A stretch of 64,000 nt of DNA from assembly GCF_030013595.1 (NCBI RefSeq), contig NZ_CP122768.1. The stretch is one strand, 5' to 3'. Source of the DNA: Escherichia coli (lineage in GTDB: Bacteria > Pseudomonadota > Gammaproteobacteria > Enterobacterales > Enterobacteriaceae). Of this stretch, positions 1 through 11,272 are shown piece after piece; position 1 is the first letter of the stretch, and each line of letters opens with the position of its first letter. A program made the position numbers and the translations under genes. Under the pieces are notes generated by a model that was not told the origin of the DNA, did no database searches, and saw only the letters and a program-made list of their open reading frames with translations.

Positions 1-549
1 TGGCAGGGGCGACAGTATCAGCCGTATCCCATTCAGGGGAGTGGTTTTGAACTGAATGGCAAAGGCACCAGTACGCGCCCCACGCTGACGGTTTCTAACC
101 TGTACGGTATGGTCACCGGGATGGCGGAAGATCTGCAGAGTCTGGTCGGCGGAACGGTGGTCCGGCGTAAGGTTTACGCCCGTTTTCTGGATGCGGTGAA
201 CTTCGTCAACGGAAACAGTGACGCCGATCCGGAGCAGGAGGTGATCAGCCGCTGGCGCATCGAGCAGTGCAGCGAACTGAGCGTGGTGAGTGCCTCCTTT
301 GTACTGTCCACGCCGACGGAAACGGATGGCGCTGTTTTTCCGGGACGTATCATGCTGGCCAACACCTGCACCTGGACCTATCGCGGTGACGAGTGCGGTT
401 ATAGCGGTCCGGCTGTCGCGGATGAATATGACCAGCCAACGTCCGATATCACGAAGGATAAATGCAGCAAATGCCTGAGCGGTTGTAAGTTCCGCAATAA
501 CGTCGGCAACTTTGGCGGCTTCCTTTCCATTAACAAACTTTCGCAGTAA
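1..549 (+). CDS. Phage minor tail protein L (5' end outside window)
   Basis: Frame open from nt 1; translation ...GSGFELNGKGTSTRPTLTVSNLYGMVTGMAEDLQSLVGG... resembles lambda gpL; precedes K-I-J. Confidence 0.8.
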   Translation, partial: WQGRQYQPYPIQGSGFELNGKGTSTRPTLTVSNLYGMVTGMAEDLQSLVGGTVVRRKVYARFLDAVNFVNGNSDADPEQEVISRWRIEQCSELSVVSASFVLSTPTETDGAVFPGRIMLANTCTWTYRGDECGYSGPAVADEYDQPTSDITKDKCSKCLSGCKFRNNVGNFGGFLSINKLSQ

Positions 550-554
550 ATCCC

Positions 555-1298
555 ATGACACAGACAGAATCAGCGATTCTGGCGCACGCCCGGCGATGTG
601 CGCCAGCGGAGTCGTGCGGCTTCGTGGTGAGAGCGCCGGAGGGGGAACGATATTTTCCCTGCGTGAATATTTCCGGTGAGCCGGAGGATTATTTCCGGAT
701 GGCTCCGGAGGACTGGCTGCAGGCAGAGATGCAGGGTGAGATTATGGCACTGGTCCACAGTCATCCCGGTGGTCTGCCCTGGCTGAGTGAGGCTGACCGG
801 CGGCTGCAGGTGCAGAGTGATTTGCCGTGGTGGCTGGTCTGCCGGGGGGCGATTCATAAGTTCCGCTGTGTGCCGCATCTCACCGGGCGGCGCTTTGAGC
901 ACGGGGTGACGGACTGTTATACGCTGTTCCGCGATGCCTATCATCTTGCAGGTATCGATTTGCCGGATTTTTACCGACATGATGACTGGTGGAAATCAGG
1001 TCAGAATCTCTATCTGGATAATCTGGAGGCCACAGGGCTGTATCAGGTGCCGTTGTCAGCGGCGCAGCCGGGCGATGTGCTGCTGTGCTGTTTTGGTTCA
1101 TCGGTGCCGAATCATGCCGCCATTTACTGTGGTGACGGCAAGCTGCTGCACCATATTCCTGAACAACTGAGCAAACGAGAGAGGTATACCGACAAATGGC
1201 AGCGACGCACACACTCCCTCTGGCGTCACCAGGCATGGCACGCATCTGCCTTTACGGGGATTTACAACGATTTGTCCGCCGCATCGATCTGCGTGTGA
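555..1298 (+). CDS. Phage tail assembly protein K (NlpC/P60 plus JAB/MPN type)
   Basis: 247-aa ORF with HSHP metalloprotease-like and Cys/His motifs typical of gpK; 3' end overlaps gene I, and the true stop may define a shorter product. Confidence 0.8.
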   Translation: MTQTESAILAHARRCAPAESCGFVVRAPEGERYFPCVNISGEPEDYFRMAPEDWLQAEMQGEIMALVHSHPGGLPWLSEADRRLQVQSDLPWWLVCRGAIHKFRCVPHLTGRRFEHGVTDCYTLFRDAYHLAGIDLPDFYRHDDWWKSGQNLYLDNLEATGLYQVPLSAAQPGDVLLCCFGSSVPNHAAIYCGDGKLLHHIPEQLSKRERYTDKWQRRTHSLWRHQAWHASAFTGIYNDLSAASICV

Positions 1299-1837
1299 AA
1301 ACGGGGGCCGAAGCTATCCGGGCGCTGGCCATGCAGATCCCGGCGTTTCGTCAGAAGCTGAGCGACGGCTGGTATCAGGTACGCATTGCCGGGCGTGATA
1401 CAGGTGAAACGGAATTATCAGCCCGTCTTAATGAACCGCTGGCAAATGGTGCTGTGATCCATATCGTGCCGCGTCTGGCAGGAGCCAAAAGTGGCGGTGT
1501 GTTTCAGGCTGTGCTGGGGGCGGCTGTTATGGCGGTTGCTATATGGATGCCGGGGGTAGGAATTATGGCGAGTAATCTGCTGTTTTCTCTCGGTGCCAGT
1601 ATGACGCTTGGCGGTGTTGCACAGATGCTGGCCCCTAAACCCAAAACCCCCCGCACACAGACAACGGATAACGGCAAACAGAATACGTATTTCTCCTCAC
1701 TGGATAACATGGTTGCCCAGGGCAATGTTCTGCCCGTTCTGTACGGTGAAATGCGCGTGGGGTCGCGGGTGGTTTCTCAGGAGATCAGCACGGCAGACGA
1801 AGGGGATGGTGGTCAGGTTGTGGTGATTGGTCGCTGA
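1196..1837 (+). CDS. Phage tail assembly protein I
   Basis: 213 aa starting MAATHTLPLASPGMARICLYGDLQRF, ending ...GEMRVGSRVVSQEISTADEGDGGQVVVIGR, as in lambda gpI. Confidence 0.85.
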   Translation: MAATHTLPLASPGMARICLYGDLQRFVRRIDLRVKTGAEAIRALAMQIPAFRQKLSDGWYQVRIAGRDTGETELSARLNEPLANGAVIHIVPRLAGAKSGGVFQAVLGAAVMAVAIWMPGVGIMASNLLFSLGASMTLGGVAQMLAPKPKTPRTQTTDNGKQNTYFSSLDNMVAQGNVLPVLYGEMRVGSRVVSQEISTADEGDGGQVVVIGR

Positions 1838-1897
1838 TACAACATGTTTTATGTGAAACCGCCTGCGGGCGGTTTTATCGTTTATGGAGCATGACGA

Positions 1898-4800
1898 ATG
1901 GGTAAAGGCAGCAGTAAGGGGCATACCCCGCGCGAAGCGAAGGACAACCTGAAATCCACGCAGCTGCTGAGTGTGATTGATGCCATCAGCGAAGGGCCGG
2001 TTGAAGGTCCGGTGGATGGATTAAAAAGCGTGCTGCTGAACAGTACGCCAGTGCTGGACAGTGAGGGGAATACCAACATCTCCGGCGTCACGGTGGTGTT
2101 CCGGGCCGGTGAGCAGGAGCAGACACCGCCGGAGGGATTTGAATCCTCCGGCTCCGAGACGGTGCTGGGTACGGAAGTGAAATACGACACGCCGATCACC
2201 CGGACCATCACGTCGGCAAACATTGACCGACTGCGTTTTACCTTCGGCGTGCAGGCACTGGTGGAAACCACCTCAAAGGGGGACAGGAATCCGTCGGAAG
2301 TCCGCCTGCTGGTTCAGATACAGCGTAACGGTGGCTGGGTGACGGAAAAAGACATCACCATTAAGGGCAAAACCACCTCGCAGTATCTGGCCTCGGTGGT
2401 GGTGGGTAACCTGCCGCCGCGCCCGTTCACTATACGGATGCGCAGGATGACGCCGGACAGCACCACAGACCAGCTGCAGAACAAAACGCTCTGGTCGTCA
2501 TACACCGAAATCATCGATGTGAAACAGTGCTACCCGAACACGGCACTGGTCGGCGTGCAGGTGGACTCGGAGCAGTTCGGCAGCCAGCAGGTGAGCCGTA
2601 ATTATCATCTGCGCGGGCGTATTCTGCAGGTGCCGTCGAACTATAACCCGCAGACGCGGCAATACAGCGGTATCTGGGACGGAACGTTTAAGCCAGCATA
2701 CAGCAACAACATGGCCTGGTGTCTGTGGGATATGCTGACCCATCCACGCTACGGCATGGGGAAACGTCTTGGTGCGGCGGATGTGGACAAATGGGCGCTG
2801 TATGTCATCGGCCAGTACTGCGACCAGTCGGTGCCGGACGGCTTTGGCGGCACGGAGCCGCGCATCGCCTGTAATGCGTACCTGACCACACAGCGCAAGG
2901 CCTGGGATGTGCTCAGTGATTTCTGCTCGGCGATGCGCTGTATGCCGGTATGGAACGGGCAGACGCTGACGTTCGTGCAGGACCGACCGTCGGATAAGGT
3001 GTGGACCTATAACCGCAGTAATGTGGTGATGCCGGATGATGGCGCACCATTCCGCTACAGCTTCAGCGCCCTGAAAGACCGCCATAATGCCGTTGAGGTG
3101 AACTGGATTGACCCGGATAACGGCCAGGAGACGGCGACAGAGCTTGTGGAGGACTCGCAGGCCATTGCCCGTTACGGTCGTAACGTCACGAAGATGGATG
3201 CGTTTGGCTGTACCAGCCGGGGGCAGGCGCACCGCGCCGGGCTGTGGCTGATTAAAACAGAACTGCTGGAAACGCAGACCGTGGACTTCAGCGTGGGTGC
3301 CGAAGGGCTTCGCCATGTACCGGGCGATGTCATTGAAATCTGCGATGATGACTATGCCGGTATCAGCACCGGCGGGCGCGTGCTGGCGGTGAACAGCCAG
3401 ACCCGGACGCTGACGCTCGACCGTGAAATCACGCTGCCATCCTCCGGCACCACGCTGATAAGCCTGGTTGACGGAAGTGGCAATCCGGTCAGCGTGGAGG
3501 TCCAGTCCGTCACCGACGGCGTGAAGGTGAAAGTGAGCCGGGTTCCTGACGGCGTTGCCGAGTACAGCGTGTGGGGGCTGAAGCTGCCGACGCTGCGCCA
3601 GCGCCTGTTCCGCTGTGTGAGTATCCGTGAGAACGACGACGGTACGTATGCCATCACTGCAGTGCAGCATGTACCGGAGAAAGAAGCCATCGTGGATAAC
3701 GGGGCGCACTTTGACGGTAACCAGAGCGGCACGGTGAATGGTGTCACGCCGCCAGCAGTGCAGCATCTGACCGCAGAAGTCACCGCAGACAGCGGGGAAT
3801 ATCGGGTGCTGGCCCGCTGGGACACGCCGAAGGTGGTGAAGGGCGTGAGCTTCCTGCTTCGCCTGACCGTGGCAGCGGATGACGGCAGTGAGCGGCTGGT
3901 CAGCACGGCCCGGACGACGGAAACCACTTACCGCTTCACACAACTGGCTCTGGGGAACTACAGGCTGACAGTCCGGGCAGTAAATGCGTGGGGGCAGCAG
4001 GGCGATCCGGCGTCGGTATCGTTCCGGATTGCCGCACCGGCAGCGCCGTCGCGGATTGAGCTGACGCCGGGCTATTTTCAGATAACCGCCACGCCGCATC
4101 TTGCGGTTTATGATCCGACGGTACAGTTTGAGTTCTGGTTCTCGGAAAAGCGGATTGCGGATATCAGGCAGGTTGAAACCACAGCACGCTATCTTGGCAC
4201 GGCGCTGTACTGGATAGCCGCCAGTATCAATATCAAACCGGGCCATAATTATTATTTTTACGTTCGCAGTGTGAACACCGTTGGCAAATCGGCATTCGTG
4301 GAGGCTGTTGGTCAGCCGAGTGATGACGCATCCGGCTATCTGGATTTTTTCAAAGGCGAGATAGGGAAAACCCATCTGGCTCAGGAGCTGTGGACGCAGA
4401 TTGATAACGGTCAGCTTGCGCCTGACCTGGCTGAAATCAGGACGTCCATTACGGATGTCAGCAATGAAATCACACAGACCGTCAATAAGAAACTGGAAGA
4501 CCAGAGTGCAGCAATTCAGCAGATACAGCAGGTTCAGGTTGATACAAGTAATAACCTGAACAGCATGTGGGCTGTGAAGTTGCAGCAGATGCAGGACGGA
4601 CGCCTTTATATTGCGGGTATCGGTGCCGGTATTGAGAACACCCCCGACGGCATGCAGAGTCAGGTGCTGCTGGCGGCAGACAGGATTGCGATGATTAATC
4701 CTGCAAATGGCAACACAAAACCGATGTTTGTTGGTCAGGGTGATCAGATATTCATGAATGAAGTGTTCCTGAAATATCTGACGGCTCCCACCATTACCAG

Positions 4801-5377
4801 CGGCGGTAATCCTCCTGCATTTTCCCTGACACCGGACGGAAAGCTGACCGCTAAAAATGCAGATATCAGTGGCAGTGTGAATGCGAACGCCGGGACGCTC
4901 AACAACGTTACGATAAATGAAAACTGTCAGATTAAAGGGAAACTGTCAGCCAACCAGATTGAAGGCGATATTGTCAAAACAGTGGGTAAGGCTTTCCCGC
5001 GGGACTCCCGGGCACCGGAGCGGTGGCCATCAGGGACCATTACCGTCAGGATTTATGACGATCAGCCGTTTGACCGGCAGATTGTTATTCCGGCGGTGGC
5101 ATTCAGCGGTGCTAAACATGAGAGAGAGCATACTGATATTTACTCCTCATGCCGCCTGATAGTGAAGAAAAATGGTGCTGAAATTTATAACCGTACCGCG
5201 CTGGATAATACGCTGATTTACAGTGGTGTTATTGATATGCCAGCTGGTCACGGCCACATGACGCTGGAGTTTTCGGTGTCAGCATGGCTGGTAAATGACT
5301 GGTATCCCACAGCAAGTATCAGCGATTTGCTGGTTGTGGTGATGAAGAAAGCCACCGCAGGCATCAGTATCAGCTGA
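1898..5377 (+). CDS. Phage tail tip / host specificity protein J
   Basis: 1159-aa ORF directly after I; size, position and fibronectin-III-like central region match lambda gpJ. Confidence 0.9.
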
Positions 5378-5395
5378 ATTTTATAACCCATATAC

Positions 5396-5420
5396 GGGCG
5401 CCAGAAATGGCGCCTTTTTT
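5396..5420 (+). terminator. Rho-independent terminator after J
   Basis: GGCGCC-AGAAAT-GGCGCC hairpin followed by TTTTTT. Confidence 0.6.
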
Positions 5421-5444
5421 ATTGCAGAAAAGCGAGAGGTAATT

Positions 5445-6044
5445 ATGCGTAAAGTTTGTGCAGCCATTTTGTCCACAGCCATCTGTCTGGCCGTATCCGG
5501 TGCGCCTGCATGGGCGTCTGAGCAGCAGGCCACACTGAGCGCAGGGTATCTTCATGCCCGTACGAACGCTCCCGGCAGCGATAATCTGAACGGGATTAAC
5601 GTGAAATACCGTTATGAGTTTACGGACACGCTGGGGCTGATTACGTCATTCAGTTATGCCAACGCTGAAGATGAGCAAAAAACGCATTACAGCGATACCC
5701 GCTGGCATGAAGATTCCGTGCGTAACCGCTGGTTCAGCGTAATGGCGGGGCCGTCTGTGCGCGTGAATGAATGGTTCAGCGTGTATGCGATGGCGGGTGT
5801 GGCTTACAGCCGTGTGTCGACTTTCTTCGGGGATTATCTCCGCGTAACTGACAACAAGGGGAAAACGCACGATGTGCTGACCGGAAGTGATGACGGTCGC
5901 CACAGCAACACGTCTCTGGCGTGGGGGGCTGGCGTGCAGTTTAACCCGACCGAATCCGTGGCCATTGATATTGCTTATGAAGGCTCCGGCAGTGGTGACT
6001 GGCGCACTGACGGTTTCATCGTGGGTGTCGGTTATAAATTCTGA
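5445..6044 (+). CDS. lom: Lom outer-membrane protein (Ail/Lom/OmpX beta-barrel family), prophage moron
   Basis: 199 aa with signal peptide and C-terminal ...GVGYKF beta-barrel ending; sits between J and stf as in lambda. Confidence 0.9.
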
Positions 6045-6070
6045 TTAGCCAGGTAACACAGTGTTATGAC

Positions 6071-6098
6071 AGCCCGTCGGTTCAGGCGGGCTTTTTTG
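6071..6098 (+). terminator. Rho-independent terminator after lom
   Basis: GC stem (gcccg/cgggc) followed by TTTTTT just before stf. Confidence 0.55.
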
Positions 6099-6108
6099 TG
6101 GGGTGAAT

Positions 6109-9100
6109 ATGGCAGTAAAGATTTCAGGTGTACTGAAAGACGGCACAGGAAAACCGGTACAGAACTGCACAATCCAGCTGAAAGCAAAACGTAACAGCAC
6201 CACGGTGGTGGTGAACACGCTGGCCTCAGAAAATCCGGATGAAGCCGGGCGTTACAGCATGGACGTTGAGTACGGTCAGTACAGCGTTATTCTGTTGGTG
6301 GAAGGATTCCCGCCGTCACATGCCGGGACCATCACCGTGTATGAAGACTCCCGACCCGGTACGCTGAATGATTTTCTCGGTGCCATGACGGAGGATGATG
6401 CCCGGCCAGAGGCACTGCGCCGTTTTGAGCTGATGGTGGAAGAGGTGGCGCGTAACGCGTCCGCGGTGGCACAGAACACGGCAGCCGCGAAGAAGTCAGC
6501 CGGCGATGCCGGCACATCAGCCCGTGAGGCGGCAACCCATGCGACTGATGCTGCAGGCTCAGCACGCGCAGCCAGCACGTCAGCCGGACAGGCCGCGTCG
6601 TCGGCTCAGTCAGCGTCTTCCAGCGCAGGAACGGCATCAACAAAGGCCAGTGAAGCATCGAAAAGTGCTGCTGCTGCAGAGTCCTCAAAAAGCGCGGCAG
6701 CTACCAGTGCCAGTGCCGCGAAAACGTCAGAAACGAATGCCGCAGCGTCACAACAATCAGCAGCCACTTCTGCATCCACCGCGACCACGAAAGCGTCAGA
6801 AGCTGCCACCTCAGCCCGGGATGCGGCGGCCTCAAAAGAGGCAGCGAAATCATCAGAAACGAACGCATCCTCGAGCGCCAGTAGCGCAACTTCCTCGGCA
6901 ACGGCGGCAGGAAATTCCGCGAAGGCGGCAAAAACGTCCGAGACGAACGCTAAGTCTTCTGAGACGGCAGCGGGACAGAGCGCCTCAGCTGCGGCAGGCT
7001 CAAAAACAGCGGCTGCATCATCTGCCAGCGCCGCGTCAACAAGTGCCGGGCAGGCCTCAGCCAGTGCCACCGCCGCCGGAAAATCGGCAGAAAGCGCCGC
7101 ATCATCCGCTTCAACAGCCACAACGAAGGCTGGCGAAGCCACTGAACAGGCCAGCGCAGCAGCGAGTTCTGCTTCCGCAGCGAAGACATCCGAAACGAAC
7201 GCGAAAGCGTCGGAAACCAGCGCAGAATCCTCAAAAACGGCTGCCGCATCGTCAGCCAGTTCGGCGGCGTCATCGGCATCATCGGCGTCTGCTTCAAAAG
7301 ATGAGGCGACCAGACAGGCGTCAGCAGCGAAGGGCAGCGCCACGACAGCATCCACGAAGGCGACAGAGGCAGCTGGTAGTGCGACAGCGGCAGCTCAGAG
7401 CAAAAGTACGTCGGAATCTGCAGCAACGCGTGCCGAGACAGCAGCAAAACGGGCAGAGGATATTGCATCTGCCGTGGCGCTTGAGGATGCGAGCACGACG
7501 AAAAAGGGGATAGTACAGCTCAGCAGTGCGACCAACAGTACGTCTGAAACGCTGGCGGCAACGCCAAAGGCAGTAAAATCAGCCTATGACAATGCAGAGA
7601 AACGTCTGCAGAAAGACCAGAACGGCGCTGATATACCCGATAAGGGACGCTTCCTGAACAACATTAACGCGGTCAGTAAAACAGACTTTGCTGATAAGCG
7701 TGGTATGCGTTATGTGCGGGTTAACGCTCCTGCAGGTGCAACATCTGGAAAATATTACCCTGTTGTTGTTATGCGTTCTGCTGGCTCAGTAAGCGAACTG
7801 GCATCAAGGGTCATTATCACCACGGCAACGCGAACCGCAGGCGATCCGATGAATAACTGCGAGTTTAACGGATTTGTTATGCCTGGTGGCTGGACTGACA
7901 GGGGGCGTTATGCTTATGGAATGTTCTGGCAATATCAAAACAATGAACGAGCCATCCACTCAATAATGATGAGTAATAAGGGCGATGATTTGCGCTCTGT
8001 GTTCTATGTTGATGGCGCTGCTTTCCCTGTTTTTGCGTTTATCGAAGATGGCCTGTCAATATCCGCACCTGGTGCTGATCTCGTTGTTAATGATACGACC
8101 TATAAGTTTGGGGCAACAAATCCAGCGACTGAATGTATCGCGGCGGACGTTATCCTTGATTTTAAGAGTGGGCGTGGTTTTTATGAGTCTCATTCGTTAA
8201 TCGTTAACGATAATTTGTCGTGCAAAAAACTTTTTGCCACAGACGAAATTGTAGCGCGTGGTGGTAATCAGATTCGAATGATAGGTGGGGAGTATGGTGC
8301 ATTATGGCGTAATGATGGCGCTAAAACTTACCTGCTGCTTACCAATCAAGGTGATGTTTATGGTGGCTGGAATACATTAAGACCGTTTGCTATTGATAAC
8401 GCAACCGGCGAACTGGTTATTGGAACCAAACTGTCCGCAAGTCTGAACGGTAATGCATTAACAGCAACAAAGCTGCAAACGCCAAGACGGGTTTCTGGTG
8501 TTGAGTTTGATGGTTCCAGAGATATTACTTTAACCGCCGCGCATGTGGCTGCTTTTGCCAGAAGGGCAACGGATACATATGCCGATGCGGATGGTGGCGT
8601 TCCCTGGAATGCCGAATCAGGTGCTTACAATGTCACCCGCTCTGGCGACAGCTATATTCTGGTTAACTTCTATACCGGAGTCGGAAGTTGCCGGACCCTG
8701 CAGATGAAGGCGCATTACAGAAATGGTGGTCTGTTCTACCGTTCTTCAAGAGACGGTTATGGTTTTGAGGAAGACTGGGCAGAAGTTTATACCTCGAAAA
8801 ATCTTCCACCAGAAAGCTACCCAGTCGGCGCACCAATCCCGTGGCCATCAGATACCGTTCCGTCTGGTTATGCCCTGATGCAGGGGCAGACTTTTGACAA
8901 ATCTGCTTACCCGAAACTTGCAGCCGCTTATCCGTCAGGCGTGATCCCTGATATGCGTGGCTGGACGATTAAGGGCAAACCTGCCAGTGGTCGGGCCGTA
9001 TTGTCTCAGGAACAGGACGGCATTAAATCGCATACCCACAGCGCCAGCGCATCCAGTACGGATTTGGGGACGAAAACCACATCGTCGTTTGATTACGGCA

Positions 9101-9459
9101 CTAAATCCACGAATAACACCGGGGCGCATACCCATAGTGTTAGCGGTACGGCTGCTTCAGCCGGTGCACATACCCATTCGATGACATTTGTTTCAGGTGG
9201 TTCCAGTGGTGCTCCGGGAAGTGGAGCATCTGATTATTCTAAATACAGTGTTAACACTTCTTCTGCAGGCGCTCATACGCACTCTGTATCGGGTACTGCT
9301 GCAAGCGCAGGTGCACACGCACATACTGTGGGTATTGGTGCTCATACGCACTCCGTTGCGATTGGTTCACATGGACACACCATCACCGTTAACGCTGCTG
9401 GTAACGCGGAAAACACCGTCAAAAACATCGCATTTAACTATATTGTGAGGCTTGCATAA
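6109..9459 (+). CDS. stf: Side tail fibre protein Stf (long form)
   Basis: ORF track starts at a GTG (6103); likely ATG at 6109 giving [17 protein letters not shown]... Contains a long Ala/Ser/Thr-rich repeat region and a C-terminal His-rich GAHTHS repeat block. Confidence 0.9.
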
Positions 9460-10034
9460 TGGCATTCAGAATGAGTGAACAACCACGGACCATAAAAATT
9501 TATAATCTGCTGGCCGGAACTAATGAATTTATTGGTGAAGGTGATGCATATATTCCGCCTCATACAGGTCTGCCAGCAAACAGTACCGATATTGCACCGC
9601 CAGATATTCCGGCTGGCTTCGTGGCTGTTTTCAACAGTGATGAGTCATCGTGGCATCTCGTTGAAGATCATCGGGGTAAAATGGTTTATGACGTGGCTTC
9701 CGGCGACGCGTTATTTATTTCTGAACTCGGTCCGTTACCGGAAAATGTTACCTGGTTATCGCCGGAAGGGGAGTTTCAGAAGTGGAACGGTACAGTCTGG
9801 GTGAAGGATACGGAAGCAGAAAAACTGTTCCGGATCCGGGAGGCGGAAGAAACAAAAAACAGCCTGATGCAGGTAGCCAGTGAGCATATAGCGCCACTTC
9901 AGGATGCTGTAGATCTGGAAATCGCAACGGAGGAAGAAACCTCATTGCTGGAAGCCTGGAAAAAGTATCGGGTGTTGCTGAACCGTGTTGATACATCAAC
10001 TGCACAGGATATTGAATGGCCAGCACTGCCGTAG
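9459..10034 (+). CDS. tfa: Tail fibre assembly protein Tfa
   Basis: 191 aa, start overlaps stf stop (TAATG); Tfa-family chaperone immediately after stf. Confidence 0.9.
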
Positions 10035-10131
10035 GGTAAAACATATAAATTCTATAATTAGATGTATCTTTCCATTTACGGCAAGGAAGGGGGCTTGGAA
10101 GACGTAAAGCATCTCACACCGAGATTATTTT

Positions 10132-10722
10132 TTATATGTCAGGTGTCTGAAGTTTTGCTTTGGCTCTTAAAATGGTTTGCCGCGAGGTTTTGAATTCCCG
10201 GGCAATGGCACTTATACTTACACCTGACTTAATTCGTTCGAATACCACCTGTTTCTGTTCTTCATTTAACACAGGTGGTCGACCAAAACGTTTCCCTGCG
10301 CCGCGGGCTCTTACTATCCCGGAATGAGTGCGTTCAAGTAAAAGGTCTCGTTCAAATTCAGCGACTGCTGAAATTACGTGCATCATCATTTTTCCTGTTG
10401 GACTGGTCAGGTCAATGCCCCCCAATGCTAAGCAATGCACTCTGATACCTGTTTCGGTCAGTTGTTCCACTGTTTTCCTGATATCCATTGCATTACAACC
10501 AAGGCGATCCAGTTTTGTCACAATCAATTGATCACCACATTTCAGGCGAGCAAGCAACCGGTTAAAACCAGGACGCTCACTGGTTGCTGCTGAGCCGCTA
10601 ATGTGTTCTTCGATTATTTGCTGAGGTTTGATTTTAAAACCTGCACTTTCGATTTCCCGGCGTTGATTTTCGGTGGTCTGATCCAGCGTTGATATCCGAC
10701 AGTAAGCAAAAATTCGAGACAT
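10132..10722 (-). CDS. pin: Pin-type serine DNA invertase (Hin/Gin/Cin family)
   Basis: 196 aa [15 protein letters not shown]... with resolvase catalytic Ser region and C-terminal HTH; convergent with tfa, as pinQ/pinR in K-12 prophages. Confidence 0.9.
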
Positions 10723-11038
10723 AGTGAGACTCTATACGAAATTGGTGTTCATATCATAATGCATCTCAGAAAATAATTTTGATTATTTTTGTGCATATTT
10801 GTATGTACACGTTCGAAAATAAACGAATGCGTATGCAACCCCGTAATTTTGGTGAGACCCAAAATCGATTTTGTGAAAAATGGCTTTAACTCGGTTTGTT
10901 TTTCGAGTTCCGGGCAGACTCAAGGAAGAAGAATAGTGTTGCGTGTTATTTTAACCAGATTTCAATTTGTTTGGTCGTGGAAAAGTGGAGCAAAATGTTG
11001 TTAAAGTGGAAAAATGATAAAAAAGTAAGTTTGTTATA

Positions 11039-11272
11039 TTACATTTTACCATTTAAATTTTGGTTGTCTTTAAGAACTGATATCGCTGTTTGTAATAATT
11101 CTTTGTTATCCAGCCATGATTTTTTCTTTATGTTTCCTTCAATGTAATCAAGCAATGTTCTGGTATTGATAGGTCTTCCCTGTTTTGCTACTTCCACTAC
11201 AGCATCCCCTAGGATAATTCTTACTTCAGGAAGCTGCGCAGGGAACCACTTTAGGGTGTCTTTTGATTTCAT
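11039..11272 (-). CDS. ydfK: Prophage cold-shock-induced protein YdfK/YnaE family
   Basis: ORF track gives 88 aa; product recalled as 77 aa starting MKSKDTLKWFPAQLPEVRIILGD, so the start is placed at 11272. Confidence 0.7.
   Translation of the reverse strand: MKSKDTLKWFPAQLPEVRIILGDAVVEVAKQGRPINTRTLLDYIEGNIKKKSWLDNKELLQTAISVLKDNQNLNGKM

Follow-up and report, generated by a model that had tools for sequence, protein, structure and literature searches.

Does a gene that lies between two terminators inside a phage tail operon make up a transcription unit of its own? The question is raised by lom in a lambdoid prophage of Escherichia coli, which an initial annotation had described as isolated by its two flanking Rho-independent terminators and as having the layout of a classic moron, with a promoter to be sought in 5378-5444. 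The window analysed here is a stretch of 64,000 nucleotides that holds the right end of this prophage, integrated at ydfJ (the Qin site).

Gene content of the locus

The prophage genes run in the order L, K, I, J, lom, stf, tfa and pinQ, with host genes from ~12 kb, and are collinear with L-K-I-J-lom-stf-tfa of lambda. The start of the window falls within the tail genes, and the Q gene and the late promoter pR' lie outside it. The genes on which the argument turns are these:

1898-5377, + strand: J, the tail tip and host-specificity gene, identified by J-specific Pfam domains and by the RefSeq annotation of a 98% identical prophage
5445-6044, + strand: lom, encoding a 199-aa Ail/Lom outer-membrane beta-barrel with an N-terminal signal peptide (PF06316)
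6098-9459, + strand: leader of stf (Shine-Dalgarno GGGGTG at 6100-6105, ATG at 6109) and the side tail fibre gene stf itself
9459-10034, + strand: tfa, the tail-fibre assembly gene

The stop codons of J and lom are at 5375-5377 and 6042-6044, respectively. The Lom protein matches PF06316 (Ail_Lom) in Pfam over residues 1-199 of 199 (2e-124, 413 bits against a cut-off of 23), and this full-length match, together with the gene order, upholds its earlier identification as an Ail/Lom outer-membrane protein encoded inside the tail operon. Its relatives in the PDB are Lom (9wso), OmpX and Ail; chain C of 9wso bears the name 'Outer membrane protein lom' in the 2026 PDB copy and has the lambda length, 206 aa. 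The 199-aa allele of the window is common, the same one being carried by many E. coli prophages, and J-lom-stf is the common lambdoid arrangement, which most E. coli genomes have. The stf coding sequence (6109-9459) is intact and specifies 1116 aa.

Several other features of the prophage end were recorded. An Rfam IS009 match (RF02111) on the + strand at 9802-10000 scores 226 bits (gathering score 117) and lies wholly inside tfa. A pinQ-type invertase gene (10132-10722, - strand) adjoins stf and tfa, and no second set of fibre tips is evident among the annotated genes. The junction between prophage and host is at a truncated ydfJ (~11.7-12.1 kb). The strongest hairpin of the window (11772-11813, - strand) is in the ydfK/ynfT region, as is a weak CssrB match in Rfam.

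Hairpins downstream of J and lom

The initial annotation had reported a hairpin and T-run after J and another after lom. Both are present, the second ending one base short of the 6098 originally given:

5396-5420, + strand: T1, an intrinsic-terminator motif after J (stem 5396-5415, T-run 5415-5420)
6071-6097, + strand: T2, an intrinsic-terminator motif after lom (stem 6071-6092, T-run 6092-6097)

T1 begins 18 nt after the J stop codon and T2 26 nt after that of lom, each on the same (+) strand as its gene. T1 has the form GGGCGCCA-GAAA-TGGCGCCT, with eight pairs (six G-C, one A-U and one G.U), and the first T of its TTTTTT run closes the stem. Its predicted fold (-15.7 kcal/mol, z = -3.9) is matched in stability by 0 of 200 shuffles. 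T2, AGCCCGTC-GGTTCA-GGCGGGCT, also has 8 bp, six of them G-C, with a 6-nt loop and a TTTTTT run; 1 of 200 shuffles is as stable as its fold (-15.5 kcal/mol, z = -2.85).

Such sites are rare by chance. Within positions 1-12000 of the window no other terminator-like match is as good as T1 and T2, and by hairpin energy they rank 7th and 8th of 73 over both strands of all 64 kb. When the window was dinucleotide-shuffled fifteen times, sites of T1/T2 strength arose at a rate of 0.018 per kb per strand; in the two intergenic gaps, 131 nt together, ~0.002 such sites are expected and two are observed.

Both hairpins are also maintained in relatives. We surveyed 80 IMG/VR loci encoding close relatives of this Lom, and in all 78 that could be scored terminator-like hairpins flank the lom copy, at most 90 nt away on its upstream side and at most 200 nt away on its downstream side. 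In the T1 alignment 99.2% of cells are paired, a figure that drops to 38-64% in every slid register. Changes in T1 keep the structure: a C-G pair becomes U-A (GGGCGTC/GACGCC), a G-C pair becomes A-U (GGGCACC/GGTGCC), with both single-step intermediates also found, and a paired deletion yields GGGCC/GGGCC. The loop with its closing pair is exactly inverted, from AGAAAT to ATTTCT, in 12 of the 78 loci (L003, L007 and ten others), a flip about the centre of the palindrome that leaves the hairpin in place. An extended variant occurs in Stx1_132418, and unrelated hairpins take the T1 position in lambda and Stx1_132418. T-runs are kept in all hairpin variants. Two T1 pairs have changed on both sides, a count reached by 10 of 500 shuffles, which is a modest signal in a sample of close relatives (92-98% Lom identity).

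T2 is nearly invariant among relatives, with 99% of cells paired; five of six stem substitutions yield G.U, and zero pairs have changed on both sides. A second context follows lom in 22 of the 78 loci and in prophage P-EibA, where the stop codon is succeeded by ~80 different nt containing an extra hairpin and then by a 13-bp hairpin with T7-8 that shares the outer stem of T2, AGCCCG/CGGGCT (for example L052 3100-3240 and L083, which is P-EibA, 1056-1205). Downstream of the distant lom of the Sepvirinae there is yet another hairpin with T6.

Because the hairpins are kept in relatives and change in ways that preserve their structure, we regard the terminators after J and after lom as selected features. 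Both elements have the properties of intrinsic terminators, namely a G+C-rich stem, a short loop (by the measure used, a stem of ~5-14 bp and a loop of 3-8 nt), a U-tract, a position after a stop codon and evolutionary maintenance. Judged from these properties of the DNA, T1 and T2 are most likely Rho-independent terminators in the distal late (tail) operon. Neither they nor lom match any Rfam family at a permissive E-value; the lambda records J02459, NC_001416 and PV340536 annotate no regulatory features at J-lom-stf, and a literature search found no published description of terminators around lom.

Hairpins bracket J as well as lom

A scan of the whole window brought out a third terminator-like element of the operon, located upstream of J:

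1858-1879, + strand: hairpin and T-run between I and J, ACCGCCTGCGGGCGG TTTTAT

This hairpin is AAACCGCC-TGCG-GGCGGTTTT (also written AAACCGCC-TGCG-GGCGGTTTTAT), with a T-run of four T, and a 63-nt segment containing it folds at -25.7 kcal/mol (z -5.2). The I-J gap is 96% identical to that of lambda and the hairpin itself is invariant. In this stretch a hairpin thus occupies each of the three intercistronic gaps that reach 60 nt, namely I-J, J-lom and lom-stf, and the essential gene J is bracketed in the same way as lom, by the I-J hairpin and T1. Since J is bracketed too, flanking terminators do not mark a gene as a moron or as an autonomous unit. The sequence after tfa (10035-10131) differs from these three strong cases earlier in the operon: its one hairpin with a T-run is AU-rich and weak.

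A lom cassette that begins and ends in T-tracts

The ownership of T1 can be read from phages that lack lom. We used a chimeric query, the 3' end of J joined to the 5' end of stf, and found phages in which these genes are only ~58 nt apart. Their junction reads J stop, ATTTTATAACCCAGATAC, GGGCGCCAGAAATGGCGCC, TTTTTTATT, TGTGGAGTGAATATG(stf); thus in Lambda_4C10, PhiR57_1 and mEp460_4F5 the J stop codon is followed by 18 nt, T1, TTTTTTATT and TGTGGAGTGAATATG(stf). T1 is unchanged in these phages and is joined straight to the stf leader, the same leader that in the window follows T2. An exact-match scan of IMG/VR for T1 returned 119 copies. The lom leader comes next in 107 of them and the stf leader in the remaining 12, so that no other cargo was seen at this site among the 119 and lom is absent from ~10% of the relatives. 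Because T1 is intact where lom is missing, we assign it to J as the resident terminator of the J/stf junction, not to a lom unit.

Alignment of the lom-less junctions with both junctions of the window delimits the segment that comes and goes:

~5424-6096, + strand: lom cassette (leader, lom and T2), absent from lom-less relatives
5421-5444, + strand: lom leader, 24 nt, with Shine-Dalgarno GAGAGG at 5434-5439, near-invariant in the 107 copies

The cassette of ~673 bp comprises a 21-nt leader with the Shine-Dalgarno sequence, lom, a 26-nt spacer and T2. Its boundaries are ambiguous by 1-2 T residues, and both breakpoints are in a terminator T-tract. An insertion and a deletion would fit this alignment equally well and are indistinguishable in it. 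One further locus, L087 (PPompW_499, 1725-2127), has J and T1 followed by a lom truncated to a 327-nt ORF, beyond which lies espO, a T3SS effector gene in the opposite orientation; in this case the lom cassette has decayed or been replaced while T1 has stayed. We hold the structural conclusions on the hairpins and the cassette with high confidence.

Promoter-like sequences upstream of lom

If lom were transcribed on its own, there should be a place for its promoter. Only 24 nt (5421-5444) separate the T-run of T1 from the lom ATG, and they are occupied by the ribosome-binding site; a promoter therefore has no space either between T1 and lom or within the cassette. Scans for sigma-70-like sites, which a non-sigma-70 or activator-dependent promoter would escape, are in line with this. 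A consensus scan found no promoter-like site on the + strand between 4275 and 8630. With a position weight matrix whose frequencies are approximate values, the best score for a -10 element ending in 5300-5432 was 5.2, which is background (~15 such sites per kb per strand in the window), and no sigma-70-like site rose above background in the 150 nt upstream of lom. The promoter prediction for 5378-5444 that the initial annotation had called for thus returned nothing above background by either scan.

One candidate, TTTATA-17-AGAAAT, was considered and rejected. With a score of 3.8, it would place the -10 element in the T1 loop, the sole geometry by which a transcript escapes T1, but relatives have this loop inverted or replaced by another sequence.

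Other lom genes offer more. Upstream of the Sepvirinae lom lie ~90 nt of AT-rich DNA with sites scoring 8.9 (background tail 1.5e-4) and no hairpin, and in lambda a fair -10-like sequence, TATTAT/TATAAA, lies just past its T1 (PWM score 6.0). A literature search found no mapped lom promoter or transcription start site.

Proposed mechanism and alternatives

In lambda, the Q-modified polymerase reads through late-operon terminators. We consider it probable, on the strength of the hairpins and the cassette boundaries, that the elements described here are intrinsic terminators of this kind, overridden by Q-modified polymerase in lytic growth and confining transcription in the lysogen, with T1 belonging to J and the lom cassette being without a promoter. 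During lytic growth, polymerase starting at the late promoter and modified by Q would ignore T1, T2 and the I-J hairpin, and J, lom, stf and tfa would then be co-transcribed from that promoter. In the lysogen, unmodified polymerase would be stopped: T1 would shield lom and stf from stray J transcription, and T2 would keep any lom transcript from reaching the tail-fibre genes. That Q permits read-through of downstream terminators is also stated for Stx phages (reviewed in PMC8065619). Lysogenic lom RNA, in this proposal, may arise by leakage through T1 or at a weak non-canonical promoter that overlaps the end of J as well as T1, and would not originate inside the cassette. How the source of lom RNA should be divided between these two origins and an autonomous promoter is a matter on which our confidence is about even.

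A more far-reaching form of this proposal is that lom is a promoter-less cassette of gene plus terminator, expressed in lysogens through leakage past the J terminator or from a hybrid promoter created at the junction, and that terminator T-tracts in distal late operons serve generally as joints at which cassettes of Shine-Dalgarno sequence, ORF and terminator are gained and lost. It makes sense of the structure, as the cassette edges are exactly at the T1 and T2 T-tracts and each of I, J and lom ends in a hairpin just before the ribosome-binding site of the next gene. We offer it tentatively, as a minority view among those weighed here.

The model of the initial annotation, in which promoter, lom and T2 form an autonomous unit with T1 as its upstream insulator, draws mainly on expression data. 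Lambda Lom is cited as moron-encoded and lysogen-expressed (PMC7067206, PMC3594210), expression in lambda lysogens being reported for both lom and bor (PMC7067206). In phi24B, lom expression has been measured and is uncoupled from induction. T2 is a convincing 3' end for such a unit, and the -10-like sequence past lambda's T1 could also be counted in its favour. Against these observations stand the 24 nt between the T-run and the ATG, the background-level scores upstream and the poor conservation of the only usable -10 element, AGAAAT in the T1 loop, which is flipped in 12 of 78 relatives and different in lambda. The phi24B evidence moreover concerns a distant lom whose upstream region is different, AT-rich and free of a hairpin, and one array study did not detect lom in lambda lysogens and remarks that little is known about its promoter. 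We therefore judge an autonomous promoter in 5378-5444 unlikely; the isolation of lom as its own unit is not borne out by this DNA, which leaves no room for a promoter and in which the upstream terminator is J's.

The hairpins might instead act mainly as protectors of RNA 3' ends or as processing boundaries in the long late mRNA, setting the stabilities of the J, lom and stf segments. Such a role would explain why every gap of at least 60 nt has one, and it would also account for their presence although Q-modified polymerase would ignore terminators in the sole phase that needs J and stf. It does not call for the conserved run of six T (four in the I-J case) immediately after each hairpin, which is a signature of termination and is unneeded for protection from exonucleases. 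Protection and termination are not mutually exclusive roles, and as the main function we think protection improbable. That the hairpins are chance palindromes without function is effectively refuted by comparison, weak hairpins being generally abundant (18 sites against 11.7 expected in a permissive scan of 12 kb) but only ~0.002 of this strength being expected in the two gaps, where hairpins recur in 78 of 78 relatives with compensatory changes and unrelated hairpins stand at the equivalent sites of lambda and other phages.

Status of lom as a moron

A moron in the sense of HK97 gene 15 has its own promoter, its own terminator and a deviant composition, is absent in relatives and is expressed from the prophage (PMC3594210). 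At this locus, lom is absent from otherwise collinear relatives (12 of 119 T1 copies are lom-less, with the same breakpoints) and brings its own downstream terminator, T2 lying within the indel. An own promoter was not detected, given a cassette leader of 21 nt and scans at background, and the composition is not deviant: lom has a GC content of 0.51-0.58, compared with 0.44-0.65 in the mosaic J and stf flanks, and a foreign origin argued from GC was accordingly dropped as there is no contrast. Lom is also dispensable for plaque formation (PMC10695390). The claim of a classic moron layout consequently survives in part. The indel, the terminator and the moron status accorded to lom in the literature support it, whereas the missing promoter, the ownership of T1 and the ordinary GC do not. 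Because the classic moron consists of promoter, gene and terminator, two bracketing terminators are not that layout, and the lom locus is a moron in a loose sense.

The significance of these results reaches little beyond annotation, Lom being a textbook lysogenic-conversion protein. They do supply a refinement, a small and testable detail: T1 is older than lom or has persisted after its loss, and the cassette lacks a promoter and is bounded by T-tracts. They also supply a methodological correction, in that two flanking terminators do not make a gene autonomous, the upstream one here being that of an essential neighbour, J. The transcription of lom in lambda-type lysogens is a small question that the literature itself raises, and the exact boundaries of the cassette are suited to the design of constructs.

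Comparison with known systems

Within the Ail/Lom/OmpX/PagC/Rck family (PF06316), the Lom of the window matches over its full length and shows no notable difference. Its locus resembles the HK97 gene 15 moron (Juhala et al. 2000) in being extra DNA in a tail operon with a downstream terminator and a lytically dispensable product that acts on the envelope, and differs from it in that a moron by definition also has a promoter of its own and a deviant GC content, neither of which is detectable in the cassette.

The Stx podophages of the 933W/phi24B type (Sepvirinae) likewise have an Ail/Lom gene followed by a hairpin and T6 terminator. In these phages the allele is a distant one of ~240 aa, preceded by the AT-rich region of ~90 nt with promoter-like sites and by no hairpin. 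It is this Sepvirinae lom, and not the locus in the window, that is laid out as a textbook moron. The phi24B small RNA 24B_1, described as 'downstream of lom', was considered and set aside; it belongs to the podophage context and is absent from the window.

The closest counterpart is lambda. Tandem terminators t'J1-t'J4, which we take to include, probably, sites homologous to those described here, were reportedly mapped downstream of J in its late operon by Luk & Szybalski in 1983 (Mol Gen Genet 189:289). The order J-lom-stf (orf-401) in lambda (J02459, ~18.9-19.65 kb) is that of the window, and there too a hairpin with a T-run follows J (L001 221-236, in the numbering of the lambda locus) and lom (L001 913-934). 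The I-J hairpin is identical in both, and across the lom-stf gap, with T2 and the stf leader, identity is 94%. The T1 of lambda is unrelated in sequence (CGTCCGGGAACGGGCG+TTTT) and folds at -9.7 kcal/mol, as against -15.7 in the window; stf is intact in the window and frameshifted in laboratory lambda. Lambda Lom (L001 266-883) is 43% identical to that of the window, but the last 27 aa are identical, and this sharing of the C-terminus and of the DNA downstream implies a recombination breakpoint inside the 3' end of lom. The arrangement around lom is thus already known in substance: it is that of lambda itself.
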